Assembly: GCF_001598795.1 (NCBI RefSeq)
Contig: NZ_BCZP01000011.1
Span: forward strand, 1 to 32,000
Source of the DNA: Delftia acidovorans NBRC 14950
GTDB taxonomy: Bacteria; Pseudomonadota; Gammaproteobacteria; Burkholderiales; Burkholderiaceae_C
Reading direction: 5' to 3'
DNA length: 32,000 nt
Both the position numbers and the translations under genes were made by a program. This document shows, one piece after another, positions 2,139-32,000 of this stretch (position 1 is its first letter; every line of letters starts with the position of its first letter). The notes under the pieces were generated by a model that saw nothing but the letters and a program-made list of their open reading frames with translations, did not search any database and was not told the DNA's origin.

Positions 2139-2159
2139 GGCCCAAAGGAACCCCACCCG

Positions 2160-4151: not shown

Positions 4152-4245
4152 CCCCGACCCCACCCCAGACCTGCGAGCTGCTGCAGCGCGCAGGCCACGT
4201 CATCAACACCACTGCCACCTGGTGGCGCATCCCCAAGGAAGCCTC

Positions 4246-4821: not shown

Positions 4822-4845
4822 TCCCCGCGAACACAGGAGCAACAC

Positions 4846-6130: not shown

Positions 6131-6131
6131 C

Positions 6132-7332: not shown

Positions 7333-7583
7333 GCAACACAGACACCCTGAACCTGCGCGAAGCTGCAGACATCCTCAAGATTCACGTCAAAACCGCAGAA
7401 GACATGGCCCGCGAGGGGAAAATACCGGCCGCAAAAATCGGCCGTGCCTATGTCTTCATGCGCCGCGACGTGGTGCGCTTCGCCGAGCAGGCAATCAACA
7501 AGCAAACCGCCGACCGCATACTGAAGCGCTCACCAAAGCGCGTTCGCAAGGTCAGTGCCCCGCAGGTTCGCGTAGCGCATTAG
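7329..7583 (+). CDS. excisionase-like / MerR-type helix-turn-helix DNA-binding protein
   Basis: LNLREAADILKIHVKTAEDMAREGKIPAAKIGRAYVFMRRDV fits the excisionase-family HTH pattern. It is positioned next to the integrase. Its 3' end overlaps the integrase 3' end by 54 nt. Confidence 0.65.
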   Translation: MSNTDTLNLREAADILKIHVKTAEDMAREGKIPAAKIGRAYVFMRRDVVRFAEQAINKQTADRILKRSPKRVRKVSAPQVRVAH

Positions 7584-8648: not shown

Positions 8649-8701
8649 GCCGGCCTCCGATCTGCTGCAAATGGGGCGCGAGTCTACGCCCAGGCAGGTT
8701 G

Positions 8702-8747
8702 GTAGACAACTATTCTCGGCTGGTAGACGCTCCCTTTGGCTACCATT
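8702..8747. promoter_or_regulatory. Candidate integrase/Xis arm-type binding sites
   Basis: TGGTAGAC occurs at 8702-8709 and 8723-8730 (21-bp phasing). An inverted near-copy, GGCTACCA, is at 8740-8747. All lie between the int start and the tRNA. Confidence 0.3.
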
Positions 8748-8762
8748 CTGGCGGGTAAAACG

Positions 8763-8797
8763 GCAAAGAAAAAGGCCCTAGAAGTCTCTAGGGCCTT
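8763..8797 (-). terminator. Rho-independent terminator downstream of tRNA-Val
   Basis: A 10-bp perfect stem, AGGCCCTAGA / TCTAGGGCCT (8774-8797), is followed on the minus strand by TTTTTCTTT. Confidence 0.6.
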
Positions 8798-8816
8798 GAT
8801 TTAATTCAGTTTTTGG

Positions 8817-8892
8817 TGGTGGGTGCTAACGGGGTCGAACCGCTGACCTACGCCTTGTAAGGGCGCCGCTCTACCAACTGAGCTAAGCACCC
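8817..8892 (-). tRNA. tRNA-Val (anticodon TAC)
   Basis: Manual cloverleaf: acceptor GGGTGCT/AGCACCC, D arm GCTC-AGTTGGTA-GAGC, anticodon arm GCGCC-CTTACAA-GGCGT, T arm AGCGG-TTCGACC-CCGTT, discriminator A and an encoded CCA. Length 76 nt. Confidence 0.93.
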
Positions 8893-8906
8893 CACCTTGA
8901 CTGGTG

Positions 8907-12231: not shown

Positions 12232-12289
12232 GCGCCTATTGTGGCCGCTGCCCGGGCCCGCCGCAGCGGGCCTGCGGGCCCTCGGGCTC

Positions 12290-13276
12290 TTACTCGGCCT
12301 CGATCTTCGAGGATTTGACCACCTGGGCCCAGTTGGACCACTCGGTCTTGACCATGGCGCCCAGCTGCTGCGGGTTCATGTAGTCCGCCGTGGCGCCCTG
12401 CTCCTGTGCCTTTTGCTTGAAGGCCGGGTTCTCCACCACCTTCTTGAGGTCGGCCGTGAGCTTGTCGATCACGGGCTTGGGCGTGGCGGCGGGCGCAAAC
12501 ACGGCAAACCAGGAGGTGGCGTTGACGCCCGCATAGCCGGCCTCGGCCGTGGTGGGCGCATCAGGCAGGCTGGGCAGGCGCTGCGTGCCGGTGACGGCCA
12601 GCACGCGCAGCTTGCCGCTTTGCACATGGGGCATGAAGGGCGGCGCCGTGCCGAAGGTCAGGTCCACCTGGCCACCCAGCAGGTCCTGCAGCGCGGGGCC
12701 GGTGCCCTTGTAGGGGACGTGGACCATCTTGATGCCGGCCTGCTGCTCCAGCATGGCGCCCGTCACGTGCTGCAGCGAGCCATTGCCCGACGAGGCGTAG
12801 TTCAGCTTGCCGGGGTTGGCCTTGGCATAGGCCACGAGTTCGGCCAGCGTCTTGACGGGCAGCTCGGACCGCACCACGATGATCTGCGGCGCCGACAGCA
12901 CATTGGCCACGGGCTGGAAGTCGCCCTGCTCCCAGATGCGGGCCTTGGTCAGGTGGGGCGAGATGACGTGGTAGCCCGAGTACTGCATGAGCAGGGTGTA
13001 GCCATCGGCCTCGGCACGCTTGACCAGGCTGGCTGCGATGGAGCCGTTGCCGCCGCCCTTGTTGTCCACCACCACCGACTGGCCGATGACGGGCGCCAGG
13101 GCCTGGGCCGCCATGCGCGCCGCCAGGTCGGTAGTGCCACCGGCTGCGGCCGGCACGATCATGGTGATGGTCTTGGCGGGGTAGCCGCCCTGGGCCAGCG
13201 CGGCTGTGCCGCCCAGGCCCAGTCCTGCGATGGCCATGGCCACGGCTGCGATCTGTCTGCGTTGAATCTTCTTCAT
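12290..13276 (-). CDS. Bug-family (TctC-like) tripartite tricarboxylate transporter periplasmic substrate-binding protein
   Basis: Signal peptide ending ALAQG, followed by [23 protein letters not shown] and downstream Bug-family motifs. 328 aa. Confidence 0.88.
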
Positions 13277-13327
13277 CTTTGTCTCCTTGGTTTGCTCGGT
13301 TCTTGTGAATGAGAATGCGCGCCGGCC

Positions 13328-14317
13328 TCAGCCCTTGGCCAAAGCCCGTTCGCGGATGGCTGCAAAGTCGGCTGGTGGCTGGTGCAGGTCCAGCCGGGCA
13401 CCGGCCTTGGCGATCTGGCTGGCCGTGTCATGGCCGATCAGCGCGGGCAGGCTGCGCGCGGCCGCGACGATCTGCGCCAGGTCCACGCCGGTGTCGTAGC
13501 CCATGAGCTGCAGCGCGTGGACGATGTCCTCGGTGCAGGCATTGCCCGAGGCGCCGGGCGCGTAGGGGCAGCCGCCCAGGCCGCCGATGGAGGCGTCGAA
13601 GCGGTCGCCGCCCGCCTCGATCGAGGCCAGCACATTGCCCAGGGCCATACCGCGTGTATTGTGGAAGTGCAGGGTCAGTCCCAGTTGTGGCCAGCGCTGC
13701 CGGAAGGCGGCCACCATGGCACGCACCTGGGTCGGGAAGGCCATGCCCGTGGTGTCGCACAGCGTGATGCCCTGCACGCCCAGGTCGGCAAAGCGCTGCA
13801 CCCAGTCGAAGACTTCCTGCTGCGGCACGTCGCCCTCCATGGGGCAGCCAAAGCAGCACGACAGCGAGACGTTGACGGGCACGCCCGCCTGCTGCGCCGT
13901 GGCCACGACCTGGGCCAGCGCCGCGAACGACTGGCTGCGCTGCATGCGCAGGTTGCACAGGTTGTGCGTCTCGCTGACCGACATGACCAGGTTGAGCTCG
14001 TCCGTGCGCGCCTCGATGGCGCGCTCGGCGCCGCGGGCATTGGGCACCAGGGCCGTGTAGACCGTGCCGGGGCGGCGCTCTATCTCACGCATGACGATCT
14101 CGCCATCGCGCAGCGCGGGAATGGCCGTGGGCGAGACAAAGGCCGTGACCTCGATCTTGGACAGGCCAGCCTGAGACAGCGCATTGACCAGGGCGATCTT
14201 GTCCTCGGTGGGGACAAAGGCCTGCTCCATCTGCAGCCCGTCGCGCGTGCCGACCTCGTTGAAGAAGACGCGGCGGCCCGCGCCCTGCCAGACATCCGTG
14301 GGGTGGACGGCATTCAT
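13328..14317 (-). CDS. hydroxymethylglutaryl-CoA lyase-like (HMGL family) enzyme
   Basis: EVGTRDGLQME near the N-terminus and LHFHNTRGMALGN match the HMGL/DRE-TIM lyase signature. The start overlaps the upstream stop (ATGA-type junction at 14314-14317). Confidence 0.88.
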   Translation of the reverse strand: MNAVHPTDVWQGAGRRVFFNEVGTRDGLQMEQAFVPTEDKIALVNALSQAGLSKIEVTAFVSPTAIPALRDGEIVMREIERRPGTVYTALVPNARGAERAIEARTDELNLVMSVSETHNLCNLRMQRSQSFAALAQVVATAQQAGVPVNVSLSCCFGCPMEGDVPQQEVFDWVQRFADLGVQGITLCDTTGMAFPTQVRAMVAAFRQRWPQLGLTLHFHNTRGMALGNVLASIEAGGDRFDASIGGLGGCPYAPGASGNACTEDIVHALQLMGYDTGVDLAQIVAAARSLPALIGHDTASQIAKAGARLDLHQPPADFAAIRERALAKG

Positions 14318-15531
14318 TGGATCACTCCCTTGCTGCGCAGCAGCGCAATCTGTTGGGCCGTGAGGCCGGCCTCGGCCAGCACGGCATCGGTGTCATCGCC
14401 CACATGGGGCGCACTGCTGCGCACCGTGCCGGGCGTGAGCGAGAGCTTGGGGACGATGCCCGGCACCTCGATGTCGTCTCCGTCGCGCGTGTGCTGGCTG
14501 AGGATCATGTCGCGGGCGCGGTAATGCGGGTCCTCGGCAATGTCCTTGGCCGTGTAGACCTTGCCGGCCGGCACGCGCGCGGCGGCCAGTTGGTCCATCA
14601 CGGCCTGCACGCTCTGCGAGCGCGTCCAGCCGCCAATGACGGCGTCGATCTCGGCGATGCGCGCCACGCGGCCCGCGTTGTCGGCCAGTTGCGGATCGTC
14701 GGCCAGGTCCTGGCGGCCGATGGTGGCCATCAGGCGCTTGAAGATGGAGTCGCCATTGCCGGCCACCAGCACCCAGCCGTCCTGGCAGGGATAGGCGTTG
14801 GACGGCGCAATGCCCGGCAGCGCGCTGCCCGCCGCCTCGCGCACGGCACCAAAGGCGCTGTATTCGGGCAGCAGGCTTTCCATGACGTTGAACACGGCCT
14901 CGTGCAGCGCCACGTCGATGACCTGGCCGGCACCGCCGTTCACCTTGCGGTGGTACAGGGCCATCATCACGCCGATCACACCATGCAGCGCGGCCAGCGT
15001 GTCGCCTATCGAGACGCCCACGCGCACCGGCACGCGGCCCGGCTCGGCCGTCAGGTGGCGCAGGCCGCCCATGGCCTCGCCTATCACGCCAAAGCCCGGC
15101 AGGTCGCGGTAGGGGCCGGTCTGGCCGTAGCCCGAGATGCGCAGGATGACCAGGCCGGGGTTGAGCGCATGGAGCTCTTCGGGCGACATGCCCCAGCCTT
15201 CCAGCGTGCCGGGGCGGAAGTTCTCGACCAGCACATCGGCCTCGGCGATCAGGCGCCGCGCGATGTCCTGGCCCTCCTGCTGGCGCAGGTCCAGCGCCAC
15301 CGAGCGCTTGTTGCGCGACTGCACCTGCCACCAGACCGAGGTGCCGTTCTTGATCAGGCGCCAGTTGCGCAGCGGATCGCCCGCGCCCGGCGCCTCGATC
15401 TTGACCACGTCGGCGCCGAACTCGCCCAGCGTCTTGCCGCAGAACGGCCCTGCAATCAATTGCCCCATCTCGACCACGCGCACGCCATTGAGTGCGCCGG
15501 GTGTGGGTGCCTGCCTTGTCTGTTGTGTCAT
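14314..15531 (-). CDS. family III CoA-transferase (CaiB/BaiF type)
   Basis: GVRVVEMGQLIAGPFCGKTLGEFGADVVKIE plus an overall 405-aa CaiB/BaiF layout. Confidence 0.9.
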   Translation of the reverse strand: MTQQTRQAPTPGALNGVRVVEMGQLIAGPFCGKTLGEFGADVVKIEAPGAGDPLRNWRLIKNGTSVWWQVQSRNKRSVALDLRQQEGQDIARRLIAEADVLVENFRPGTLEGWGMSPEELHALNPGLVILRISGYGQTGPYRDLPGFGVIGEAMGGLRHLTAEPGRVPVRVGVSIGDTLAALHGVIGVMMALYHRKVNGGAGQVIDVALHEAVFNVMESLLPEYSAFGAVREAAGSALPGIAPSNAYPCQDGWVLVAGNGDSIFKRLMATIGRQDLADDPQLADNAGRVARIAEIDAVIGGWTRSQSVQAVMDQLAAARVPAGKVYTAKDIAEDPHYRARDMILSQHTRDGDDIEVPGIVPKLSLTPGTVRSSAPHVGDDTDAVLAEAGLTAQQIALLRSKGVIQ

Positions 15532-15699: not shown

Positions 15700-16584
15700 A
15701 TGAAACTCGACCCGATTTCGCTGCGCCTGTTCGTGGCCGTGATGGAGGAAAGCGCCATCGCCCGCGCCGCCGCACGTGAACACATCGCCCCCTCGGCCGC
15801 CAGCCGGCGGCTGGCCGAGCTGGAGAGCCAGCTGCAGGTGGAGCTGTTCACGCGCAGCAACCGCGGCAGCGTGCCCACGGCTGCCGCCTATGCACTGCTG
15901 AACATGGCGCGTGGCGTGCTCAACGACCTGGACGGCATCGGCGAGCAGATGCGCGAGTACGGCAGCGGCCTGCGCGGCCATGTGCGCGTGATGGCCAACA
16001 TCTCGGCCATCACGCAGTTTCTGCCCTCCCAGCTGCAGCGCTTCCTGGACCAGCATCCGCATGTGGACGTGCGCCTGCAGGAGCGCGTGAGCAGCGACAT
16101 CGCACGCGCCGTGGCCGACAACGAGGCCGACATCGGCATCCTCAACCAGGGCAGCTATGGAGAGAAGATCCGCCTGCGCCCGTACCGGCGCGATCGCCTC
16201 ATCGTCATCGTGCCCCAGGGCCATGCGCTGGTACGGCGGCGCTCGCTGCGGCTGGCCCAGGTGCTGGACCATGACCTGGTGGGCATGCACGCCGGCAGCG
16301 CGCTCAACCACCAGATCACGCGCGCGGCCGCTGACCTGGGCCTGCAGCCCCGGCTGCGCATGAAGGTCACGGGCTATGACGCGCTGTGCCTGATGGTGGC
16401 CTCGGGCCTGGGCGTCGGCATCCTGCCCGAAGGCAGCGCACGCCTGTACCTGGGCGCCCTGCCGCTGCGCTGCATTGCGCTGGACGAGCCCTGGGCCGAG
16501 CGCCAGCTGATGCTGTGCGTGCGCTCGCAAGAGGCACTGCCGCCCGTGGCGCAGTTGCTGGTCGAACACCTGTGCGAACCCTGA
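15700..16584 (+). CDS. LysR family transcriptional regulator
   Basis: N-terminal wHTH LRLFVAVMEESAIARAAAREHIAPSAASRRLAELESQL and a C-terminal substrate-binding domain. Only the last 885 nt of the 14317..16584 ORF is used. Confidence 0.9.
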   Translation: MKLDPISLRLFVAVMEESAIARAAAREHIAPSAASRRLAELESQLQVELFTRSNRGSVPTAAAYALLNMARGVLNDLDGIGEQMREYGSGLRGHVRVMANISAITQFLPSQLQRFLDQHPHVDVRLQERVSSDIARAVADNEADIGILNQGSYGEKIRLRPYRRDRLIVIVPQGHALVRRRSLRLAQVLDHDLVGMHAGSALNHQITRAAADLGLQPRLRMKVTGYDALCLMVASGLGVGILPEGSARLYLGALPLRCIALDEPWAERQLMLCVRSQEALPPVAQLLVEHLCEP

Positions 16585-16589
16585 TTCCC

Positions 16590-17723
16590 ATGCTTGCCTT
16601 CAACCCCATCCCCCCGGCCCCTCTGCCAGAGCAGGCCGCCGCACGGACCTGGGACATCTTCTGCCAGGTCATAGACAACTTTGGCGACATCGGCGTGTGC
16701 TGGCGCGCGGCGGCCGACCTGGCCTCACGCGGCCAGCGCGTGCGGCTGTGGATGGACGACGCCAGCGCCCTGGCCTGGATGGCTCCCCGGCCGCACCCGG
16801 CCGGGCTCAGCGTGCACGGCTGGCCCACGCAGGCGCAGGATGTCCCGCAGTCCATGGGTGATGTGGTCATCGAGGCCTTCGGCTGCGAGATCCCGCCGCC
16901 CTTTCTGGCGGCCATCGCGCGCCGGGCACCGCTGTGGATCAACCTCGAATACCTGTCGGCAGAGGACTATGTGGAGCACTGCCACCGCCTGCCCTCGCCG
17001 CTGATGTCGGGGCCGGCTGCGGGGTTGACGCGCTGGTTCTTCTACCCGGGCTTCACGGCCGCCACGGGCGGCCTGCTGCGCGAGCCGGACCTGGCCGCGC
17101 GCCAGGCAGCCTTTGCTTCCGAGGGCCGGCAGGCCTGGCGCACACGCCACGGCATAGGCACCGGCGATTGCGCCATCTCTCTGTTCTGCTACGAGCCCCC
17201 TGCCCTGCCTCAATGGCTGGCCCAACTGCATGCAGCGCCCCCTGCGCCGCAGGCCACGCATTTGCTGGTAACCCCGGGGCGCGCAGCCGCCACCGTGCAA
17301 CAGGCCATGGCCAGCGTGCCCGCCACGGAACAAGGCGCGGTGACCCGGCATGCGCTGCAGCCCTGCCCCCAACCTCAGTTCGATGAAATGCTCTGGGCCT
17401 GCGACCTGAACCTGGTGCGTGGCGAGGATTCGCTGGTACGCGCGCTGTGGGCGGGCCAGCCGCTGGTCTGGCACATCTATCTCCAGCACGACGACGCCCA
17501 TCACGACAAGCTCGACGCCTTTCTTGATTGGCTGCAGGCACCAGCCAGCCTGCGCGCCTTCCACCATGCCTGGAACGGCATGGCACCGGCAAGCACCTTG
17601 CCCGCAATCACGCCTGCGTTGCTGCAGCAATGGCAGGAATGCGTGCAGGCGGCACGCTTGCGGCTGCTGCAACAGACCCCATTGATTGAGCAGCTACAAG
17701 CTTTCGTGACCGAAAAAAGCTAG
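16590..17723 (+). CDS. earP: EF-P arginine-32 rhamnosyltransferase EarP (DUF2331 family)
   Basis: N-terminal WDIFCQVIDNFGDIGVCWRAAADL is the EarP hallmark. Located immediately upstream of an Arg32-type efp. Confidence 0.85.
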   Translation: MLAFNPIPPAPLPEQAAARTWDIFCQVIDNFGDIGVCWRAAADLASRGQRVRLWMDDASALAWMAPRPHPAGLSVHGWPTQAQDVPQSMGDVVIEAFGCEIPPPFLAAIARRAPLWINLEYLSAEDYVEHCHRLPSPLMSGPAAGLTRWFFYPGFTAATGGLLREPDLAARQAAFASEGRQAWRTRHGIGTGDCAISLFCYEPPALPQWLAQLHAAPPAPQATHLLVTPGRAAATVQQAMASVPATEQGAVTRHALQPCPQPQFDEMLWACDLNLVRGEDSLVRALWAGQPLVWHIYLQHDDAHHDKLDAFLDWLQAPASLRAFHHAWNGMAPASTLPAITPALLQQWQECVQAARLRLLQQTPLIEQLQAFVTEKS

Positions 17724-21910: not shown

Positions 21911-23326
21911 TTACACGGGCTGGCCCACCAGGTCGTGGCCCTGCGTGCCCACGATGCGCGCCTTCACGAAGTCGCCCACCTTGTAGGTCTTGCTGGCCTT
22001 CTCGGGCGGCAGCAGGTGCACCAGGCCGTCGATCTCGGGCGCATCGGCATAGCTGCGGCCCACGCCACCCTTCTTGCCCAGGCCCACGGACTTGTCCACC
22101 AGCACCTGCATGGTCTGGCCCACGCGCTTTTGCAGGCGCGCAGTGGAAACCTCTTCGGCCACGGCCATGAAGCGCGCACGGCGCTCCTCACGCACTTCCA
22201 GGGGCAGCATGCCGGGAATCTCGTTGGCGGCAGCGCCTTCGACCGGGCTGTAGGCAAAGCAGCCCGCGCGGTCGATCTGCGCCTCGCGCAGGAACTGCAG
22301 CAGGTGCTCGAACTCCTGCTCCGTCTCGCCAGGGAAGCCCGCGATGAAGGTTGAACGGATCACCAGATCCGGGCAGATCTCGCGCCAGCGCTGCAGGCGC
22401 TCCAGGTTCCTCTCGCCGTTGGCGGGGCGCTTCATGCGCTTCAAGACATCGGGATGGCTGTGCTGGAAGGGCACGTCCAGATAGGGCAGCACGCGGCCCG
22501 TGGCCATGAACGGAATGACCTCGTCCACGCTGGGGTACGGGTAGACATAGTGCAGGCGCACCCAGGCGCCATAGGGCTCGGCGATCTCGGCCAGCGTCTG
22601 CACCAGTTCGAGCATGCGCGTCTTGACCGGCTTGCCGTCCCAGAAGCCCGTGCGGTACTTCACATCCACGCCATAGGCCGAGGTGTCCTGGCTGATCACC
22701 AGCAGCTCCTTGACGCCGCCCTCGAACAGCGCGCGCGCCTCCTTGAGCACATCGCCCACGGGGCGCGAGACCAGGTCGCCACGCATGGAGGGAATGATGC
22801 AGAAGGTGCAGCGGTGGTTGCAGCCCTCGGAAATCTTCAGGTAGGCGTAGTGCCTGGGCGTGAGCTTGATGCCCGCCTCGCCAAAGGCGCCCGGCACCAG
22901 GTCGATGAAGGGATCGTGCGGCTTGGGCAGATGGGTGTGAACGGCGTTCATCACCTCCTGCGTGGCGTGCGGCCCGGTCACGGCCAGCACGCTGGGGTGC
23001 ACTTCCTGGATCAGGTTGCCGCCGTCCTTGCCCGCCTTGGCACCCAGGCAGCCCGTGACGATGACCTTGCCGTTCTCGGCCAGCGCCTCGCCAATGGTGT
23101 CCAGGCTCTCGCGCACGGCGTCATCGATGAAGCCACAGGTGTTGACGATCACCAGGTCAGCGCCCTCGAAGGTCTTGGAGGTCTGGTAACCCTCGGCGCT
23201 GAGCTGGGTAAGGATGAGTTCAGAGTCCGTGAGTGCCTTGGGGCATCCAAGAGACACGAAGCCCACGCGCGGAGCGGCCGCGCCTGCAGGGGTTGTCATG
23301 GTTGTTGCGTCGCTCGTGGGGGTCAT
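21911..23326 (-). CDS. rimO: ribosomal protein S12 methylthiotransferase RimO
   Basis: N-terminal UPF0004 [16 protein letters not shown], radical-SAM CNHRCTFC, and a C-terminal TRAM domain. Confidence 0.93.
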
Positions 23327-23391
23327 AGGGGCGATATTGTCCCAGTTCTGCGAGAACTTGGTAAACCGCCCCTGAACTTATCCCTGCAAGC

Positions 23392-23931
23392 TCAGCTATT
23401 GCGCTTGATCCCGAGCGCGCCCAGCATCTGCTCGGTCTGCTTTTGCATCTGCTCCTGCATCTGGGTGAACATGTTCTGCGACTGCTCCATGTAGCTGCTC
23501 ATCATGTTCTGCATGGCGGGCGGCTGCATGCGCATGAACTGGCTCCAGGCCTCGGGCGAGGTGCCCTGGGCCTGCTCGGCCAGCTTGTTCTGGAAGTCGG
23601 TGAACATCTGCACGTTCTTTTCCAGATACGAGCCCATGTAGCCCTGCATGGCATGGCCGTAGAAACGGATGATGTTGGCCAGCACGGTCTCGGAGAACAT
23701 GGGCGCGCCACCAGCCTCTTCTTCCAGAATGATCTGCAGCAGGATGCTGCGCGTGAGGTCTTCGCCGCTCTTGGCGTCCTTGACCACCACGGGCTCGTTG
23801 CTCATTACCAGCTGCTTGACTTCCGTCAGCGTGATGTAGGAGGACGTGTTGGTGTCGTAGAGACGGCGGTTGGGGTATTTCTTGATCACGCGCTGAGCGC
23901 TGGGGGCGGCGGCTGTTGTCGTCTCTTGCAT
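23392..23931 (-). CDS. phaR: polyhydroxyalkanoate synthesis repressor PhaR
   Basis: IKKYPNRRLYDTNTSSYITLTEVKQLV...LTRSILLQIILEEE is the PhaR N-terminal signature. ATG 23931 is preceded by AGAGGAGAAG. Confidence 0.88.
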   Translation of the reverse strand: MQETTTAAAPSAQRVIKKYPNRRLYDTNTSSYITLTEVKQLVMSNEPVVVKDAKSGEDLTRSILLQIILEEEAGGAPMFSETVLANIIRFYGHAMQGYMGSYLEKNVQMFTDFQNKLAEQAQGTSPEAWSQFMRMQPPAMQNMMSSYMEQSQNMFTQMQEQMQKQTEQMLGALGIKRNS

Positions 23932-24139
23932 TGCAATGCTTCTCCTCTTGTACGTGCTTGTACGGGCAATTGATCTATTGCACTGCAACAGATTCTAGGC
24001 AGCGCACACAGCACCTGGCGCAGCAGTAACCCTGATGGTAGCCGCGTACGGCGCGCCTGCGGGCCTTGCCGCGCGCAACAGCGTCTCAAGGGCGACCTGG
24101 CCAGGCCGCCGTGCGCAGCCAGTTGCAGGTCGCGCGCCG

Positions 24140-24562
24140 TCAAGCCGGCAGGCCCGGGCTGGCAGGCGGCATTCCCAGGCTGGAATGCGTGGCCAGTTGC
24201 TCCAGCAAGGCCTCGCCGATGGCCCAGGTATAGGCGGCATTGATGCCTGCACAAGTCAGCGGTCCGGTAAACCAGCTGGCAATGGAGGCCAGGCGCAGCA
24301 CCTGCGTGCCCAGGCGCGGCGGCTCCATGGCCTGCACGAGCCCGGTGATGACCTGCACAGCAAGCTCCTGTGTAAAAGGCGCGCCGAACAGCAGGCACAG
24401 CCGCTGCGCCATGCGCAGCTGCACGGCCATGGCGACGGCCGCGCTGACCATGCCGGGAGGCGCCGCAGCGCTGGCAGCGGTCATCAACGTGTGATTGCGG
24501 ATGACTTCGCGCGCACGCAGCCGGCGCAGGCCATCGCGGGTCAAGGCTCGGGAAATGGTCAT
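24140..24562 (-). CDS. DUF697-like small protein (paralogue of 29741..30319)
   Basis: Third codon positions are strongly G/C-biased in this frame. GAGGG lies 7 nt upstream of the ATG. The pattern ...AAAPPGMVSAAVAMAVQLRMAQRLCLLFG... parallels ...ILPVPGLDLIALTGVQLSLLRKVGRLYG... in the other copy. Confidence 0.5.
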   Translation of the reverse strand: MTISRALTRDGLRRLRAREVIRNHTLMTAASAAAPPGMVSAAVAMAVQLRMAQRLCLLFGAPFTQELAVQVITGLVQAMEPPRLGTQVLRLASIASWFTGPLTCAGINAAYTWAIGEALLEQLATHSSLGMPPASPGLPA

Positions 24563-24616
24563 GGTTCAGCCCTCGTTTCACGCATGGTATGCACGGCGCG
24601 CCGGAATCAGCTCCGC

Positions 24617-25366
24617 TCAGGCCACCATCTCCAGCAGCAGCACTTGCACCTGGACTCCCGGCGCCCCCACGGCCAGCGCGCCCACATAGCCGGCCGGCAC
24701 AGGCAGATCCAGCGTGGTCCAGTCCTGTGGCGCCATGCCGGCCGGAGCATGGCACAGCCAACCGGAGGCGGCAGGCCCGCAGTCCACGGCGTAGGCATCC
24801 AGCGGCAGCGACAGCCCCTGGCCCACGGCCTTGGACACTGCCTCCTTGCGCGCCCAGCAGCGCATGGCCGCACCGGACGCCTCTTCGGCAAGGGCCTCGA
24901 TGGCCCGCTTCTCCGTGGGGTGGAAACAGGCCGCAATACCCAGGAAGTCAGGGGGCGCCTGGGCGGATTCGACGTCGATGCCTGCCGTGGTGCAGCGCGT
25001 GGCCACGGCCCAGACCTGGTTGCCGCTGTGGCTCAGGTTGCAACCCAGCCCGAAGGCCGCGAAATCGGGCCGACCAAAGGAGTTGAGTGCCAGCGGCGCC
25101 AGCGCCGGCATGCCGCCATAGGCGCTGGCCAGACGCCGCAGCAGGCTGCGCCCCGCGAGGTGACGCAGCGCATCGCGCCCCTGCACAAAACGCGCAGCGC
25201 GCGCATGTTCGCAGGTGGCGGTATGCGCCGCCAGGGCCGGGCGAAAGACGCGCTCGAGTGTCCAGTCCAGTGTCAGCCCCAGGCAGACGGCAGAGTCCGG
25301 CGCCAGGGGTGGCAGCTCAAAATCCAGCGGCGCATGGGCCGGCACGCGCAGCCGCTGCAGTGTCAC
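24617..25366 (-). CDS. Sfp-type 4'-phosphopantetheinyl transferase
   Basis: GIDVE and WARKEAVSKAVGQG (W..KEA..K) motifs are present. The GTG start overlaps the SPFH stop (GTGA at 25363-25366). Confidence 0.8.
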   Translation of the reverse strand: MTLQRLRVPAHAPLDFELPPLAPDSAVCLGLTLDWTLERVFRPALAAHTATCEHARAARFVQGRDALRHLAGRSLLRRLASAYGGMPALAPLALNSFGRPDFAAFGLGCNLSHSGNQVWAVATRCTTAGIDVESAQAPPDFLGIAACFHPTEKRAIEALAEEASGAAMRCWARKEAVSKAVGQGLSLPLDAYAVDCGPAASGWLCHAPAGMAPQDWTTLDLPVPAGYVGALAVGAPGVQVQVLLLEMVA

Positions 25367-26520
25367 CTGGCGGCCGCGATACCATCGCGTTGCGTGGACG
25401 GAGCCGCAGCAGGCGCCGGGATGGCTTCCGGCCTGGCCGTCTCGCGCCGATGCGTGTCGGGAACCGTCGGCCGTGGCATGGCGGACGAGGCCGGCCTGGC
25501 GTCGCGCACCAGCGGTCCGGCAACGGCATCTGCAGGCGTGGAGGCATCGCCCCTGCTGGTGCCGGCGACCGGCTTGCCGGCCGTCTTGCCCTCGGGTTTG
25601 AGGCCCTCGCCACCGATGGAGATCAGCGGCAGCCCGCCCGTCTTGTCGTTGCCCATGATGACCACCTTGGCATTCTCGGAGCGCGCCAGCTCCAGGGTTG
25701 CCTCGATGCCGCGCCAGCGCAGATAGGCATCGTTCATGCCGCCACTGATGATTTCCTGGAAGTTGCGGATGCCCAGTGCCTCAACCCGCTTGCGCTCGCT
25801 CTCCTGCCCTTCCTTTTCCACCATCAGCGCGTATTGCTCGACTTCGTGGCGGGTGACGTTCTTGCGCACGATGGCATCTTCCACGCCGTCCGGCAGCACG
25901 ATGCGCTTGATCAGCACGTCCTCGATCAGCACCCACTCCTGGCCAGAACGCAGTTCGGTGTTGAAGCGGTGGCGGATGTCGTAGCGCACCGACTCCGAGA
26001 TCTGGTTCTGGATCTCCAGACGGTGACTGGTGTAGATATCCTCAGGGCGGTAGATGGCGATCACATCGCGCGCACGCGCACCGATGGACTGGCCCACCAG
26101 GGTCTCGGTGTAGTCGCTGCCGATATAGCGGTGCAACTCCCCCAGGAACTCGGGCACCAGGCGGAATCGCCAGGCCAGTGTGACCTGCAGCTTCAGTCCG
26201 TCGGAGGCCAGCACCTCGTACTCGCGGTCCACGCTCTGCAGGCGGGCGTCGTAGATGTAGAGGATGTCCCAGGGCGGAATCAGGGTCGTGCCCTCGGAGC
26301 GCACCGAATCGATGTCCGTGCCGCCGCCAAAGCGCTTCCAGTGAACCCCGAGGTGGCCCGCCGGAATGGTGACGACCATGGAAGGCAGCAGAAAGACCAG
26401 CAGGACCAGCAGGACCACGGCGGCGATCAGCAGATCGTCCCCGAAAAAACGCAGCCGTGCCCACAGCCTGCGGCCCATCGCGGCCATGCCGCCATCCCGG
26501 CTTGCGGTGGTGGCGTTCAT
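25363..26520 (-). CDS. SPFH/Band 7 (prohibitin-homology) membrane protein with Pro/Ala-rich C-terminal tail
   Basis: N-terminal TM, then VTIPAGHLGVHWKRFGG..., a coiled EQYALMVEKEGQESERKRVEA segment, and ...ATLELARSENAKVVIMG. The start overlaps the ABC stop (ATGA at 26517-26520). Confidence 0.85.
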   Translation of the reverse strand: MNATTASRDGGMAAMGRRLWARLRFFGDDLLIAAVVLLVLLVFLLPSMVVTIPAGHLGVHWKRFGGGTDIDSVRSEGTTLIPPWDILYIYDARLQSVDREYEVLASDGLKLQVTLAWRFRLVPEFLGELHRYIGSDYTETLVGQSIGARARDVIAIYRPEDIYTSHRLEIQNQISESVRYDIRHRFNTELRSGQEWVLIEDVLIKRIVLPDGVEDAIVRKNVTRHEVEQYALMVEKEGQESERKRVEALGIRNFQEIISGGMNDAYLRWRGIEATLELARSENAKVVIMGNDKTGGLPLISIGGEGLKPEGKTAGKPVAGTSRGDASTPADAVAGPLVRDARPASSAMPRPTVPDTHRRETARPEAIPAPAAAPSTQRDGIAAAR

Positions 26521-28178
26521 GATGCACTCCCTCGGTTAGAGACGGAGGCGATGCGCCCGTCCTCTATGTGTACGCGGCGGTCCGCGTGGTGGAAATAGCG
26601 GTCGTCATGGGTGATGGCGATGACGGTCACCCCCTTGTGCTGCAGGCGCGGCAGCAGGACCTCGTAGAACTTGGCGCGGAAATGCGGGTCCTGGTCTGCC
26701 GCCCATTCGTCAAGCACCAGCACGGGCCGGCCTTCCAGCTGGGCCGCCACCAGGGCCAGGCGCTTGCGCTGTCCGGTGGACAGGCCCACGGTCGAGAAGC
26801 GCCGGCCGCCCTCTATGTGCACCTTGCTCTCGATCTCCATCTCGTCGATCAGCGCATCGGCATGTGCGCTATCGACAGGATCCAGGCCGTACAGCGTGCG
26901 AAACAGGTGGAAGTCCGAGAAGATGGCGCCGAACAGGTCGCGGTAGGCTTGCAGGCCCTGGGCATCCACGGGCTGCCCGTCCAGGACGAGGGAGCCGGAG
27001 TCCAGCGGATACAGCCCCGTCAGCATCTTGACCAGCGTAGTCTTGCCCGAACCGTTGCCGCCCGTGATGAACAACGTCTCGCCCCGGTGGATGCTCAGGT
27101 CGACAGGCCCCACCGTGAAACGGTCGCTGCCCTCGCCTCGCGTGAAGACGGCATGGCGCAACTCGATGGTGTCGAAGCTGGCGGGCGCGCCGGAATCGGT
27201 GCCCGTGCTCGTGGGGTTGCCAGTGCTGGTGCCCGGAGGCTCCACGTTGTCATCCAGCAGTTTCTCGACAGCCAGCAGGTTCTCCGCAGCCGCATTGGCC
27301 ACGGTGATCTGCGGCGCGGCGGAGATCACACCCGACACCGGCCCGACAAGAAACAGCACGGCGGTCAGCACCTTGACCGTGATGGCCGCGAAGGTCGTGC
27401 TCAACACCGGCAGGATGAAGACCAGCGAGCCCAGCAGCACGAAGATCGCCGCCTGGGAGAACACGAAATTCATGCCCAGCGTGCGCTGCGCCAGCGAACG
27501 GTAGTGGGCCGTGCGCGAGGACACGCGCACCGCATCGTCCAGCAGTTCCGCGGCGCGGCGGCTGGACAGCTTGATTTCCTTGAAGCCGCCCAGCAGCGCC
27601 TCGACCATCTCGTGCAGGGCGCCGATTTCCTCATGCGCGCGGCGCAGATCCTGACTGGCACGCTGGCCACGGCGGGCATACACGCGCGCGGCCAGCAGCA
27701 GGACCACCACCACCAGCCCGAGCGCAGGCAGGGACAGCGTGGCGATGTAGACCGCCGTGCACAGGATCATCATCACGGCCTGCACGCCCAGGATCAGGCT
27801 GCCGGCAGTGTGCGAGACGGTCTGCGTATCGGCATTGATGGCCGTGAAGATGGCCCCATGGCCGATCTTCTCCACCCCCACCAGGCGGCTGGCGGCCAGC
27901 TTGCGGATCAGGCGGCGGCGCCATTCGTCAACGATGCGCTCGACCTCGTCGGTGGTGGTGTTGAGAACATAGCGCTGGCTGAAGATGTAGACCAGCAGCG
28001 CCAATCCGTACAGCGCCACGTACTGGGCGTTGCCGCCCGAACGCAGCTGGCTGTCCGTCGCCACCGAGTTGACCACGGCCAGGATCACCGTGCTGGAGGC
28101 ACCGGCGAGGAAAGCGACAAAGCCCAGGCGCTGCAGCGGGGTCCGCGCATCGCGGATCAGGAGTTCCGTCAGGCGCAT
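26517..28178 (-). CDS. cyclic-peptide-type ABC exporter, fused permease-ATPase (SyrD/PvdE/YojI-like)
   Basis: 6-TM N-terminal half. Walker A GGNGSGKTT, signature LSTGQRKRLAL, and Walker B region VLVLDEWAADQDPHFR, which I recall as typical of this exporter class. Confidence 0.9.
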   Translation of the reverse strand: MRLTELLIRDARTPLQRLGFVAFLAGASSTVILAVVNSVATDSQLRSGGNAQYVALYGLALLVYIFSQRYVLNTTTDEVERIVDEWRRRLIRKLAASRLVGVEKIGHGAIFTAINADTQTVSHTAGSLILGVQAVMMILCTAVYIATLSLPALGLVVVVLLLAARVYARRGQRASQDLRRAHEEIGALHEMVEALLGGFKEIKLSSRRAAELLDDAVRVSSRTAHYRSLAQRTLGMNFVFSQAAIFVLLGSLVFILPVLSTTFAAITVKVLTAVLFLVGPVSGVISAAPQITVANAAAENLLAVEKLLDDNVEPPGTSTGNPTSTGTDSGAPASFDTIELRHAVFTRGEGSDRFTVGPVDLSIHRGETLFITGGNGSGKTTLVKMLTGLYPLDSGSLVLDGQPVDAQGLQAYRDLFGAIFSDFHLFRTLYGLDPVDSAHADALIDEMEIESKVHIEGGRRFSTVGLSTGQRKRLALVAAQLEGRPVLVLDEWAADQDPHFRAKFYEVLLPRLQHKGVTVIAITHDDRYFHHADRRVHIEDGRIASVSNRGSAS

Positions 28179-28181
28179 GCG

Positions 28182-28364
28182 TCAGCGGCCACCCAGGCGG
28201 TCTTCGGCCTGCAGCGAGGCGAACAGCAGAAGGTAGATGAATGCCACCAGCGGCGTCAGCATGAAAGCCACGACCAGGGTACGCATCCAGCCCAGGCGGG
28301 TGCGCCGGCCGATGAAGGAAACGATCAGGCACAAAATCAGATAGATGAGAAAGGCGTTCGACAT
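28182..28364 (-). CDS. 60-aa two-TM membrane protein, unknown function
   Basis: A TAGGAG Shine-Dalgarno spans the upstream stop ~8 nt before the ATG. The stop lies 3 nt before the ABC start. Two hydrophobic helices are separated by GRRTRLGW. Confidence 0.5.
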   Translation of the reverse strand: MSNAFLIYLILCLIVSFIGRRTRLGWMRTLVVAFMLTPLVAFIYLLLFASLQAEDRLGGR

Positions 28365-28374
28365 GCCCGGGCTC

Positions 28375-28941
28375 CTATTTTTTGTCGATGATCTTCAGGG
28401 GAATGGCGCCGTAGGCCAGCGCACGCACGTCGGCGGAGCAGTCGGCGCCGTTGGAGTACGTGCACTCGATGACTTCGAGCTCTCCGGTCAGGTTGTCGCA
28501 GCTGCCCACATCGATGGCATTGGACAGATGGGTCAGGTCCTGCTTGCCGACCTTGAGGACATAGAAGCGGGCGATCGTGCTGCCGGCCGACTTGTCGTTG
28601 CCCTGCTTGCGGTAGCGGATGCCGGCCACCAGTTCCTCCATGGTCTGGTTGGAGGAGTTGTTCACCTGGATCTGGGGCGAGCACACGGAGCGGCGGTTCA
28701 TGCCGTCGTTGGCCAGGATCACCAGGGCCTGGGGAATGGATACATAGATCTGCCCCTTGGGCCGGCGCCTCTTGACCAGTTCCTGCAGCGGCTCTTCGAT
28801 CACATGGTTGTTGCTGCCCAGCCGGTGCCCCACGTCCTGGGCCCTGGCGCCCGTCGCGGTGGCGGCCAGGCCGCACGCCATCAGCGTCCACAGCAGCGCG
28901 GCACGCAGGGCGCCGCTCGTCATCATCGGGAAATCGTTCAT
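28375..28941 (-). CDS. secreted/periplasmic orphan protein with 4 Cys (188 aa)
   Basis: ATG 28941 overlaps the thioesterase stop (ATGA). Signal peptide MMTSGALRAALLWTLMACGLAATATGARAQ, with a possible lipobox LMAC. The mature part has 4 Cys. Visibly less GC-rich than its neighbours. Confidence 0.6.
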   Translation of the reverse strand: MNDFPMMTSGALRAALLWTLMACGLAATATGARAQDVGHRLGSNNHVIEEPLQELVKRRRPKGQIYVSIPQALVILANDGMNRRSVCSPQIQVNNSSNQTMEELVAGIRYRKQGNDKSAGSTIARFYVLKVGKQDLTHLSNAIDVGSCDNLTGELEVIECTYSNGADCSADVRALAYGAIPLKIIDKK

Positions 28942-29720
28942 GCAGGCACCAGGCAGGCCGCTGCGCCCAGGCGCAGGCGGTCGATGTCGGCGGACAGAGT
29001 GTCCAGGAAGTCGGGAGCCGACTGGAGGAAGAAATGCCCGCCATCGAAGCAATGCAGCCGCGAGCCACCCGTGGTCATGGCGGACCATCCGGCCATCGCC
29101 AGGGGCGTGGCGAGCGCATCGGCCCGTCCCGCATAGGCCACCACGGGGCAATCCAGGGGATGCCCCGGCCCCGGCAGCGGCTGGGCCGCCAGTGCGAAGT
29201 CGGCCCGCAGCACGGGCAGCGCCATGGTCCAGAAACCGGGGTCGGCATCCAGCTCGGGCGGGATGCCGCCATAGGAGCGGACCAGCCGCTGGAAGGCGCC
29301 ATCATCCAGGCCAGCCGTATCGGCCACGGCCGGGCGACCGGGGGGCGCGCTGGCGGCCACCAGCAGCCCGCACGGTGGCGGCAGGCCGCGTTCGGCAAGT
29401 TGCCGGACCAGGGCAAACGCAAGGCGCGCGCCCAGGCTGCAGCCAAAGAGCGCGTAAGGACGGTCCAGCCAGGGCGCCACGGCATCGGCAAGGCCGGCTA
29501 GCATGGCGTCCAGGCTGACCAGCGGCCTTTCCGACAGCCGCGTTTCGTGGCCCGGGTACTGCAGCGGCGCCACGGCCACGCCTGGCAGATGGCGGCGCCA
29601 GCCCAGATAGGCCGAGGCACCGCCACCGGCGAAGGGCAGGCACAGCAGGCGCACGCCTGCATCCGCCGCACCTGCACCGAAGGCCAGCCAGGGGCAGCGG
29701 GAGGGCTGCATCGATGTCAT
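28938..29720 (-). CDS. type II thioesterase (NRPS/PKS editing alpha/beta hydrolase)
   Basis: LLCLPFAGGGAS, nucleophile elbow GCSLG (GxSxG), and the C-terminal GGHFFL catalytic His region. Confidence 0.85.
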   Translation of the reverse strand: MTSMQPSRCPWLAFGAGAADAGVRLLCLPFAGGGASAYLGWRRHLPGVAVAPLQYPGHETRLSERPLVSLDAMLAGLADAVAPWLDRPYALFGCSLGARLAFALVRQLAERGLPPPCGLLVAASAPPGRPAVADTAGLDDGAFQRLVRSYGGIPPELDADPGFWTMALPVLRADFALAAQPLPGPGHPLDCPVVAYAGRADALATPLAMAGWSAMTTGGSRLHCFDGGHFFLQSAPDFLDTLSADIDRLRLGAAACLVPA

Positions 29721-29740
29721 CGCAACCGGGCCGTGCCTGC

Positions 29741-30319
29741 TCAGGACGCGCCGGCCTTGCCGCCGCCGACGTTCTTCTGGACGAAGGCCTTGCCCTCTTC
29801 CACCTGTTGCTTGAGCTTGCTGCTCATGTCCGAGACCTTGACATCCAGGAAGGTGCCGCCCGTCTCGAAATGCTGCATGAACAGCTTGCCGACCGCGTAG
29901 GTGGTCGCGCCCGCCAAAGTGGACTGGGCCAGCACGCCGGCGGCGATGCCCACGCCCGGGATGAACTTCAGCAGGCTGGCCAGCGGTGCCGTCACCACCA
30001 GCGGCAGGTAGCCCCCCAGCAACGCGCCCAGCAGCTTCTTGCCGGTCTCGTCCGACAGCGAATGGCCGTACAGGCGGCCCACCTTGCGCAGCAGGCTCAG
30101 CTGCACGCCGGTGAGGGCGATCAGGTCCAGGCCCGGAACCGGCAGGATGCCGATGCCCATGGCCGTGATCACGTGGTTCTTGATGGTGTGCAGGGCCTCG
30201 TTTTGCCGCTCCTGCGGGGTCAGGGGCGCATCGGCTGTTTCAGCAGAGGCCACGGCAGCATCGGCAATGGCCGTGTCGGTGGCAGGGCTCACGGTACTTT
30301 CGGCTTTTTCCACGCTCAT
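29741..30319 (-). CDS. DUF697-like protein (192 aa)
   Basis: ATG 30319 is preceded by GGAG. IKNHVITAMGIGILPVPGLDLIALTGVQLSLLRKVGRLYG...KFIPGVGIAAGVLAQSTLAGATTYAVGKLF fits the DUF697 pattern as I recall it. Confidence 0.6.
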   Translation of the reverse strand: MSVEKAESTVSPATDTAIADAAVASAETADAPLTPQERQNEALHTIKNHVITAMGIGILPVPGLDLIALTGVQLSLLRKVGRLYGHSLSDETGKKLLGALLGGYLPLVVTAPLASLLKFIPGVGIAAGVLAQSTLAGATTYAVGKLFMQHFETGGTFLDVKVSDMSSKLKQQVEEGKAFVQKNVGGGKAGAS

Positions 30320-30405
30320 GGGAAATCTCCAGTTGGGGAACAAGTGGCCCGGCGCACGGCGCCGGGAAGGCGGCACAGGAAGCGGAGTTCGCCCAGTGCC
30401 ACGGC

Positions 30406-30421
30406 GGAACACAAATGTTCC
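30406..30421. promoter_or_regulatory. Perfect palindrome GGAACA-N4-TGTTCC in the operon leader (operator candidate)
   Basis: Read directly from the sequence. It lies ~+14..+29 relative to the candidate promoter. Confidence 0.3.
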
Positions 30422-30441
30422 AAAGTGTCACCGACACCGGA

Positions 30442-30470
30442 ATCATTCGTGAAACACAGGTAACAGTCAA
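30442..30470 (-). promoter_or_regulatory. Sigma70-type promoter candidate for the accessory operon
   Basis: On the minus strand: TTGACT (30470-30465), a 17-nt spacer, then AATGAT (30447-30442). Confidence 0.3.
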
Positions 30471-30542
30471 CCCTGCGCGCCGCGCCCTGGCCGCGGGCGC
30501 AGGAGGGGGTCAGGGGACTGCGAACGGGGTGCATTCGGGGCC

Positions 30543-31970
30543 TCAGCCTTCGGCTTTTCCGTAGAGGCGCTCGGCCGGGATGCCCAGATCCTCGCAGGCG
30601 GCCAGCAGGGAGCGCACGGAGCGCATGGCGGCCGACTCCGGGTCGAACTCGATGCTGGTGATAAACGACAGCCACGGCTCCAGCCCCAGTGCATAGACGA
30701 AGACCTGCTCGCACTGCAGCATGCGCAGCAGGCCCATGGCGCGGCGGTAGTCCGAGCCGTCGAGCCGGCGCGACTGGTCGCGTGCGCGGTCCAGCGGTGT
30801 CGGCAGCAGCGGACCGTACAGCCAGCTCAGGGGCGCGCCCTCGCACTCCATGCCGATGAACAGGGCCTGCAGCGAACCCACCACGGGGCGCAGGTGCTCG
30901 TACAGGCGAGGCTCCAGATTGTTGGAGTCCGCCGCGAACAGCAGGCGGCTGCCGGCGGCATCCACCAGCCAGGCGGCCTTGGTGCGAATGTCCAGATCGG
31001 CATGCTCGCCCAGGAAAGGCAGGGCGGTGACCGTCAGGTCGCCCTCGCTGAAGACCTCCAGCGGGCCGATTTCCTGCACATCGGCAAAGCCCGCCGCCTG
31101 CAGTGCGAGCTTGAGCGAGGGGTCGGCAAGACTGCCTCCCCCGCCGGCTGGCACCAGAACCCGACCGATGCGCGAGCGCAGGGCCAGCAAGGTCTCCAGC
31201 TGCACATGGTCCTGGTGGTTGTGCGTCAGCGCCACGCAGTCGATGCGCTGCGGCAGGTCGGCCAGCGTGAAGCGCGGTGTCTGGCCCGCGCTGCCACCGG
31301 CAGGCACCAGGGGATCGATCAGCACGCTGCGCCCACCTGGCGTCTCGACCAGCACGCAGGCATGGCCGAAATACCGCCAGCGCGCGCTGCCCACCGGCGC
31401 CGTGTCCGCCAGGTCCCCACCGCGCCGGGCCGGTGGCGTGCCGGTCAGCAAAGCGTGGAAGCGGTCGGCCCGCGCGCCCTCCAGCCCGAGCGACTCGGCG
31501 ATGGCATCGAAGGGGCGCGGTGCGTGCCGCAGCGCTGCCAGCATGTCGTTGGCGGGGCTGGCATACGGAATCTGCAGGGCGACCGCCCCGTCACGTTCGA
31601 GCTGCGGCGTGCCCAGGGCAAAGGGCCGCACATCGCCGCCGCGCATCACCAGCGTGCTCTGAGCCGAGGTGTCATACAGCGGGCTGCGGTAGAGCAGCGC
31701 CTCGATCAGGCGCAGGTCCGGTGCGCCGGTCAGCGAGTACACGAGCTCCGCATAGCCGCGCACCGAATCGGGAAGGCGCGGATACAGCTGCGCCATCGAA
31801 TGCCCATCGGCCTGGGTCTTGAGCAACTCCCAGCACTGCCCCAGGTCGGCAGCAAACGACAACAGCCCGGCATGGCGCTGGCGCGTCTCGTCCAGCAGGG
31901 CCTGGATGTCCCCGCGGCGCTCGGCCGGCCAGTCCATGAAGGGGCCGCCGCGCATGGCGGCATTGGCCAC
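30543..31970 (-). CDS. MBL-fold metallo-enzyme with a ~200-aa N-terminal extra domain; possibly a CmlA-like diiron beta-hydroxylase. The frame stays open to the window edge, so the 5' end may be truncated.
   Basis: HxHxDH motif (LTHNHQDH) in the C-terminal half, preceded by FGHACVLVE. No stop occurs between 31970 and 32000 in frame. Confidence 0.75.
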   Translation of the reverse strand: MANAAMRGGPFMDWPAERRGDIQALLDETRQRHAGLLSFAADLGQCWELLKTQADGHSMAQLYPRLPDSVRGYAELVYSLTGAPDLRLIEALLYRSPLYDTSAQSTLVMRGGDVRPFALGTPQLERDGAVALQIPYASPANDMLAALRHAPRPFDAIAESLGLEGARADRFHALLTGTPPARRGGDLADTAPVGSARWRYFGHACVLVETPGGRSVLIDPLVPAGGSAGQTPRFTLADLPQRIDCVALTHNHQDHVQLETLLALRSRIGRVLVPAGGGGSLADPSLKLALQAAGFADVQEIGPLEVFSEGDLTVTALPFLGEHADLDIRTKAAWLVDAAGSRLLFAADSNNLEPRLYEHLRPVVGSLQALFIGMECEGAPLSWLYGPLLPTPLDRARDQSRRLDGSDYRRAMGLLRMLQCEQVFVYALGLEPWLSFITSIEFDPESAAMRSVRSLLAACEDLGIPAERLYGKAEG

Positions 31971-32000
31971 GGCCTGGGCATGCAGCTCGGGCGCCTCCAG

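Follow-up and report, generated by a model that had tools for sequence, protein, structure and literature searches.

SPFH proteins (prohibitins, stomatins, flotillins and HflK/C) assemble into cages in membranes, and few of these cages have a known client. Cyclic-peptide exporters of the ATP-binding cassette (ABC) type include PvdE, SyrD and YojI. Proximity labelling of Tba, the balhimycin exporter, caught an SPFH protein, a paraslipin, as reported in the accessible part of PMC11960670. Putative kasumigamide-type (kas) clusters, which combine nonribosomal peptide synthetases (NRPSs) with polyketide synthases (PKSs), have been named dakasA–J in Delftia acidovorans CCUG 274B and hkasA–H in Herbaspirillum sp. 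CF444 (Nakashima et al., 2016, PLoS One; PMC5061366). Here, we describe a 32,000-nt stretch of Delftia acidovorans NBRC 14950 (contig NZ_BCZP01000011.1, positions 1 to 32,000; hereafter the window), in which a minus-strand chain of eight genes joins an ABC exporter, a type II thioesterase (TE) and a phosphopantetheinyl transferase (PPTase) to an SPFH protein, two DUF697 proteins (DUF697-1 and DUF697-2), a secreted orphan protein and a 60-residue membrane micro-protein.

Our main reading, to which we give roughly even odds (about 0.5), is that the genes here make up the accessory and export part of dakas, the putative kasumigamide-type cluster of Delftia, and that a cassette of SPFH, DUF697, orphan and micro-protein genes coupled to the exporter gene would act in export. 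The biosynthetic cluster is already in the literature and the helper enzymes are routine; the cassette is the new part. As far as we searched the literature, we found no description of a cassette of SPFH, DUF697, orphan and micro-protein genes coupled to a cluster exporter, and a search for papers pairing DUF697 or SPFH with NRPS or PKS returned nothing besides the Tba exporter paper.

Cluster identity and conservation of the cassette

The earlier note on this DNA had predicted a megasynthase to the right of the chain, and one is found there: the NRPS gene ends beside a CmlA-like hydroxylase gene, itself cut by the window edge, which lies partly inside the window and was absent from that note's gene list. 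The hydroxylase fragment matches PF18456 (CmlA_N) at 1.5e-46 together with metallo-beta-lactamase-fold domains in profile searches. The NRPS and the hybrid synthase that precedes it were read outside the window, in Delftia loci that are 97–100% identical; the window SPFH protein is 99% identical to its counterpart in D. tsuruhatensis NBRC 16741. In these loci the full-length hydroxylase has 534–538 aa, and the copies in L003, L016 and L019 overlap the stop of a 3544-aa NRPS. This NRPS carries a TubC_N dock, five Condensation-type stretches, two adenylation (A) and two carrier (T) domains, which give the order C-A-T-E-C-A-T-E-C (C, condensation; E, epimerization). Its tail in L003 reads A-T(GGDSI)-E(HHxxxD)-C(HHxxxDG) and ends T-E-C without a TE domain. 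The hybrid has the order C-A-T-KS-AT-KR-ACP (KS, ketosynthase; AT, acyltransferase; KR, ketoreductase; ACP, acyl carrier protein) and is at least 3281 aa long, as seen in the upstream gene of L019, which is cut by the contig end.

The published kas proteins show the same plan: KasC is a C-A-PCP-E-C-A-PCP-E-C synthetase (PCP, peptidyl carrier protein) of 3560 aa with no TE domain, KasB is a hybrid terminating in KS-AT-KR-ACP, KasD is a CmlA homologue, KasE is a cyclic-peptide transporter and KasA is the loading module A-KR-PCP (PMC5061366). Kasumigamide itself gives [M+H]+ at m/z 787.4 according to that paper. KasI of Entotheonella is a hypothetical protein of 341 aa. The Delftia loci thus hold a KasC-type NRPS, a KasB-type hybrid and a CmlA-like KasD, and because the architecture of the synthases and the CmlA gene match KasC, KasB and KasD, we take the locus to be the published putative kasumigamide cluster, so that as a biosynthetic cluster it is not new. 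Siderophore and lipopeptide clusters, to which the earlier note had compared the genes, are both excluded in favour of this putative kasumigamide NRPS-PKS cluster (PMC5061366). The accessible text of that paper makes no mention of SPFH, band 7, prohibitin, DUF697, orphan genes or PPTase. The delftibactin cluster, a candidate that we considered separately, was ruled out: the synthase architecture fits kas, and the delftibactin papers mention none of these genes. The delftibactin pathway has a stand-alone hydroxylase, DelD, of the TauD type.

The cassette was followed through 21 loci gathered via SPFH similarity and examined with tblastn, blastp and a profile of the orphan; they comprise six Delftia, seven Herbaspirillum, three Noviherbaspirillum, one Sulfuricella-like and four other metagenomic loci. 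The genes for DUF697-1, the secreted orphan (~185 aa), the ~60-aa protein, the ABC exporter and the SPFH protein stand in the same order in 20 of the 21, and the SPFH, secreted and ~60-aa genes occur together in all 21, with cassette protein identities as low as 33–57% in distant loci. That the order persists in loci whose proteins share no more than 40–55% identity with those of the window speaks for more than chance. Relative to the ABC stop, the SPFH start codon (ATG) is at -8, -4 or 0 nt in 20/20 loci. What is conserved, then, is the series DUF697 – (TE) – secreted protein – micro-protein – ABC – SPFH. Absence of the SPFH and DUF697 genes from the orthologous locus of close relatives had been named in the earlier note as a sign of chance juxtaposition; both genes are kept there and far beyond. 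Its exporter–SPFH–PPTase triplet fared unevenly, with exporter and SPFH adjacent in 20/20 loci and the PPTase gene co-oriented in Delftia only.

The chain itself varies around this unit. In Herbaspirillum, the PPTase and DUF697-2 genes run on the other strand; in other loci they are found upstream. The thioesterase gene, present near the cassette in all loci but L012, shifts position (after SPFH in L013, after pump genes in L020). Since these three genes are placed differently elsewhere, the chaining of all eight is specific to Delftia, and the eight-gene operon proposed earlier is best described as the Delftia version of a conserved six-gene core to which two loosely linked genes (PPTase and DUF697-2) have been joined; the chaining is real, and the conserved unit is smaller.

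Megasynthases stand beside the cassette in at least 12 of the 15 non-Delftia loci, a count that leaves out L005 and L007; L011 has a very large unannotated open reading frame (ORF) and the contig of L012 ends. Kas-type NRPS-PKS genes were seen directly in L001 and L002, and KasC-type NRPS matches lie on the contigs of L004, L006 and L008, the last of which is from Herbaspirillum sp. CF444. The other neighbours are NRPSs (L013, L015), cis-AT PKSs (L014, L020) and a trans-AT PKS (L021). Because the adjoining synthases are of several unrelated types, the cassette is not product-specific. In L013 and L020 it has genes for resistance-nodulation-division (RND) tripartite pumps as neighbours, and in L012 the SPFH gene is followed by one for an HlyD-type adaptor. 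The annotated loci examined show no protease gene linked to the cassette.

Several neighbourhoods had further features. L013 (577–4708) and L015 (1–2997) share a solute-binding protein, two SDF-family transporters and an Asp/Glu racemase, a set that may be a D-amino acid supply route for the clusters of these two loci. The first PKS gene after the cassette in L014 (11499–20627) has a match to PF10082 (putative beta-barrel porin) ahead of its ketosynthase domains, an odd fusion if real. In the Herbaspirillum-type locus L002, genes for a luciferase-like monooxygenase, a P-type ATPase and MbtH follow the cassette (11749–15489), and the opposite strand encodes a second PKS-NRPS hybrid (4220 aa), so that the cassette stands between two megasynthase blocks.

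The cassette proteins and helper enzymes

The SPFH protein matches PF01145 (Band_7) at 1.3e-17 (64.8 bits against a 23.6-bit cut-off). It is built of an Arg-rich N-terminus, one transmembrane helix, the SPFH domain, two long helices and a disordered Ala/Pro-rich tail; an AlphaFold2 (AF2) monomer model from a 38-sequence alignment places the transmembrane helix at residues 27–48, the SPFH domain at 49–208 and the helices at 213–259 and 264–280. Prohibitins 1 and 2 are the closest solved sequences (1e-10), and a Foldseek search with the model gave the human prohibitin complex as best match (5e-18), followed by HflK/C, erlin and stomatin, all of them cage formers. Arg residues precede the transmembrane helix in all homologues, so that by the positive-inside rule an N-in orientation with a periplasmic SPFH domain is predicted. 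HflK/C and prohibitin are likewise oriented N-in. The protein thus models as a prohibitin/HflK-type cage subunit, and its SPFH domain probably faces the periplasm.

The secreted orphan has no Pfam or NCBIfam family in profile searches, and its homologues are rare, a set of 1.84 billion proteins containing just 53 representative clusters of them; those in L013, L014, L015, L020 and L021 were found at 1e-43 to 1e-51. A variable signal peptide ends in an AxA-Q cleavage site and is followed by a beta-sandwich. The AF2 core (residues 62–184) is all-beta with a predicted local distance difference test score (pLDDT) of ~90, and an alignment of 15 sequences has 45 invariant columns, including C87, C148, C160 and C168, all in the mature part. 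Foldseek against the PDB gave generic beta-sandwiches only, with E > 1e-3 and TM-scores of at most 0.38. A lipoprotein was also considered and ruled out: the Cys in the signal peptide is not conserved and the AxA-Q site is. The micro-protein consists of two transmembrane helices (hydropathy 2.2 and 2.6) with a conserved basic GR(R/K)T(R/K)LG loop between them, and every locus keeps it in this slot, even where BLAST missed it.

DUF697-1 matches PF05128 at 2.1e-15 (57.3 bits, above the 27.7-bit cut-off) and gives a weak match to EcsC. Pfam describes EcsC as the product of the third gene in ecsABC, an operon for an ABC transporter in Bacillus. An acidic N-terminus is followed by glycine-rich, moderately hydrophobic segments with hydropathy peaks of 1.8 at residues 50–68, 96–114 and 113–131. 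The gene holds the same position in 20 of the 21 loci at 33–77% identity. No solved relative of DUF697-1 was found, and a literature search on DUF697 gave no functional description. DUF697-2 reaches only 19.2 bits against PF05128, under the 27.7-bit cut-off; its Herbaspirillum orthologues (39–44% identical; L001, L002) are called as PF05128 and are detected by DUF697-1 at 26–29% identity. DUF697-2 is a divergent, less hydrophobic paralogue. In L013 (4724–5988), a gene for a ParA/CbiA-type P-loop ATPase overlaps the start of another DUF697 gene by 4 nt. This arrangement resembles the pairings and fusions of NTPases with DUF697, such as YcjX-YcjF, that are noted for the family, and it hints that DUF697 proteins partner with NTPases.

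The ABC exporter, with fused membrane and ATPase halves, is a TIGR01194 cyclic-peptide exporter (334 bits against a cut-off of 286.2); against the YojI equivalog model it scores 326 bits, below the cut-off of 604. It has the Walker A motif GGNGSGKT and the signature LSTGQ, is KasE-like, and is 48–73% identical to its counterparts in the non-Delftia loci. The catalytic motifs of the helper enzymes, too, are intact, and both enzymes are ordinary. The thioesterase (PF00975 at 1.2e-34, 121 bits), with a GCSLG nucleophile motif at residue 93, is a stand-alone type II enzyme whose start is ambiguous among gene callers (257, 260 or 263 aa). The PPTase is of the Sfp type, with the motifs GIDVE (residue 129) and WARKEA (residue 171); it matches PF01648 (ACPS) at 1.6e-11 (44.6 bits), AASDHPPT_N weakly, and the HetI model at 57 bits, under the equivalog cut-off.

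Gene layout and the rest of the window

Genes and junctions were taken from the ORF listing and from direct reading of the minus strand. All eight genes named in the earlier note are present, the hidden Markov model searches that it had called for upheld its family names, and its seven junctions read exactly as it had described them (Table 1).

Table 1. Features of the minus-strand chain and its upstream flank, in window coordinates.
Feature	Position	Strand	Remarks
DUF697-1	30319..29741	-	192 aa; GGAGA ribosome-binding site 6 nt upstream; then 20-nt gap
Thioesterase	29720..28938	-	then ATGA overlap
Secreted orphan	28941..28375	-	188 aa; then 10 nt, with TAGGAG at their start
Membrane micro-protein	28364..28182	-	60 aa; then 3-nt gap
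ABC exporter	28178..26517	-	then ATGA overlap
SPFH protein	26520..25363	-	385 aa; then GTGA overlap
PPTase	25366..24617	-	249 aa; GTG start overlapping SPFH stop; then 54-nt gap
DUF697-2	24562..24140	-	140 aa; end of chain
CmlA-type diiron beta-hydroxylase gene (kasD-like), 3' three-quarters	30543..32000	-	5' end beyond window edge
Promoter-like site TTGACT-17 nt-AATGAT	30442..30470	-	in 223-nt gap between hydroxylase gene and DUF697-1

At the level of sequence, the operon-like chaining of the eight genes is confirmed, and translational coupling is shown for the ABC and SPFH genes only. The chain may, as had been suggested, secure stoichiometric co-production and serve as a platform. The candidate promoter placed earlier at ~30470 is the sole sigma-70-like match in 23300–30700 (7.4 kb) and fits at 9 of 12 positions; it is weak evidence, because shuffled sequence gives a mean of 0.6 such matches by chance. 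A terminator scan of the region found no convincing internal terminator, and an Rfam scan of 23300–32000 gave 0 matches. The hydroxylase and NRPS genes upstream of DUF697-1, which lie on the same strand, could lengthen the transcription unit. Between the hydroxylase gene and DUF697-1, one gene caller also reports an ORF of 72 aa that is rich in Arg and Cys (30316–30534, minus strand; 22084–22302 in L019) and whose stop overlaps the start of DUF697-1; given the high GC content of this DNA, the ORF is probably spurious.

Downstream of DUF697-2 lie phaR and rimO, and since these are housekeeping genes, the cluster ends at 24140. The two are directly adjacent in the window (23326–23392) and in L017; in L016, a complete Delftia genome, HTH_3 regulator and DUF4062 genes are inserted between them (15733–17337). 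Further to the left, the EarP gene (elongation factor P (EF-P) arginine rhamnosyltransferase; PF10093 at 9e-126) occupies 16386–17723 on the plus strand, and an EF-P gene is found near the matching region of L017. Window positions 1–8900 look like an integrated mobile element or prophage remnant. A tyrosine-type integrase gene (7530–8648, minus strand) stands beside a tRNA-Val gene (8817–8892, minus strand), a C5 DNA methylase gene (2160–4151, plus strand) has several ORFs without Pfam match nearby, and the GC content falls to ~0.61 at 7–10 kb.

Proposed role, rival explanations and known systems

In the mechanism that we propose, the PPTase would prime the carrier domains and the thioesterase would clear mis-primed carriers or help in chain release, the latter being possible because no TE domain follows the terminal C domain of the last NRPS. 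The homodimeric ABC exporter would move the finished peptide-polyketide across the inner membrane, operating inside or beside an SPFH ring or cage that would be anchored by its N-terminal helices and hold its SPFH domains in the periplasm. The micro-protein and the disulfide-bonded secreted beta-sandwich protein would be partners on the periplasmic side, the DUF697 proteins would sit at the cytoplasmic face of the membrane, and in loci with an adjoining RND/membrane fusion protein pump the product might be passed on for transit of the outer membrane. A bolder version holds that the cassette is a new dedicated export machine, a periplasm-facing, prohibitin-like cage around the ABC exporter, with the micro-protein and the secreted protein as further subunits and DUF697 at the cytoplasmic face, which moves as a unit between unrelated NRPS/PKS clusters; this we put forward tentatively, as a possible rather than a probable account.

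Several points weigh against an export role within a kasumigamide cluster. Kasumigamide production by Delftia is unconfirmed in PMC5061366, and the Entotheonella and Microcystis kas clusters, as published there, have the exporter kasE or nothing of this kind, with no SPFH, DUF697, orphan or micro-protein genes. Because these clusters list no cassette genes, the cassette is dispensable for making the compound; it is an add-on in Betaproteobacteria, outside the chemistry. The predicted topology draws on the positive-inside rule and on analogy, and the roles of the SPFH, DUF697, orphan and micro-proteins, like their physical complex, are ones that we infer. All loci having been found by SPFH similarity, the survey ties this SPFH clade to the cassette and not clusters in general to the cassette. 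L021, finally, keeps orphan, micro-protein and SPFH genes in order, with two separate ABC genes, a PPTase gene and a thioesterase gene close by and no DUF697 gene.

That unrelated membrane-protein genes merely came to lie beside NRPS helper genes by chance is scarcely credible: the same order and start–stop coupling recur at 33–57% identity in 20 loci, which span several metagenomes and no fewer than four genera, and synteny kept across such divergent loci excludes it. Another explanation is a membrane assembly platform, in which the SPFH and DUF697 proteins would tether megasynthases and tailoring enzymes to the inner membrane and couple synthesis to export without being parts of the transporter. 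The cassette always lies beside megasynthases and PPTase or thioesterase genes, the DUF697 proteins have no signal peptides and a moderate hydrophobicity that fits the cytoplasmic face, and the authors of PMC11960670, in the accessible part of their paper, suggest a membrane microdomain that anchors biosynthetic enzymes. However, an SPFH protein oriented N-in, as predicted, has its SPFH domain on the periplasmic side and so remote from the synthetases, two members of the cassette belong to the periplasm or the extracytoplasmic side, and the service of synthases of unrelated architecture argues against specific docking; we consider such a platform unlikely.

A further idea is that the SPFH ring and its partners guard the producer's envelope from its own product or modulate a protease in the manner of HflK/C-FtsH, with the ABC protein alone exporting. 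Prohibitin and HflK/C, the nearest structural relatives, are protease-associated cages, and a cassette dispensable for the chemistry, missing from the kas clusters of other phyla, would suit self-protection or membrane quality control. Yet none of the loci examined links a protease gene to the cassette, the strict 0–8 nt coupling to the ABC gene suggests the exporter as the partner, and we know of no activity of kasumigamide against membranes; this explanation, too, seems improbable to us. A role in periplasmic maturation is distinctly doubtful. Here, export would deliver a precursor for the secreted beta-sandwich protein, kept near the exporter by the SPFH ring, to bind or to process as in prodrug activation. 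The protein's invariant polar residues, two probable disulfides and fixed position just upstream of the exporter gene would fit, whereas it matches no enzyme family or fold, has no recognisable catalytic motif and is small, with a core of ~125 aa.

If the export machine outlined above proved true, no earlier SPFH cage would have had a transporter client defined by genetics, and DUF697 would gain a functional context for the first time. An SPFH client is here suggested genetically, which offers a tractable bacterial system for the question of what such a cage might do for its transporter, and a first testable context for DUF697 and two unannotated families. The cassette is also a recognisable marker of NRPS/PKS clusters in Betaproteobacteria, and secretion in heterologous expression may require it.

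Compared with the kas clusters, the Delftia locus has counterparts of KasC, KasB, KasD and KasE, and differs from the published Entotheonella and Microcystis sets in its SPFH, DUF697, secreted orphan and micro-protein genes. Like cluster-encoded TIGR01194 exporters, the window ABC protein scores above the cut-off and is encoded inside an NRPS cluster, whereas we found no description of a coupled SPFH, DUF697, micro-protein or secreted partner for those exporters. Tba and paraslipin offer a parallel of an SPFH protein near a cluster-encoded ABC exporter of a non-ribosomal peptide; in that case, according to the accessible part of PMC11960670, the host is an actinomycete, the SPFH protein belongs to another subfamily and the link comes from proximity labelling.

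Among SPFH systems, the operons that pair SPFH with NfeD (QmcA-YbbJ, PH1511-PH1510) resemble the cassette in that the SPFH gene is translationally coupled to genes for small membrane and beta-rich partners. The cassette differs from them in its secreted partner, a beta-sandwich of ~125 aa with no NfeD or OB-fold among its best 50 fold matches, and no NfeD domain was matched in the window proteins or in the Pfam calls of nine annotated loci. HflK/C-FtsH and prohibitin–m-AAA share with it the single N-terminal transmembrane helix, the SPFH domain, the two long helices and the predicted N-in orientation, as well as the coupling of an SPFH gene to the gene for a membrane ATPase. In contrast to these systems, the partner here is an ABC exporter rather than an AAA+ protease, and a single SPFH gene takes the place of a paralogue pair.

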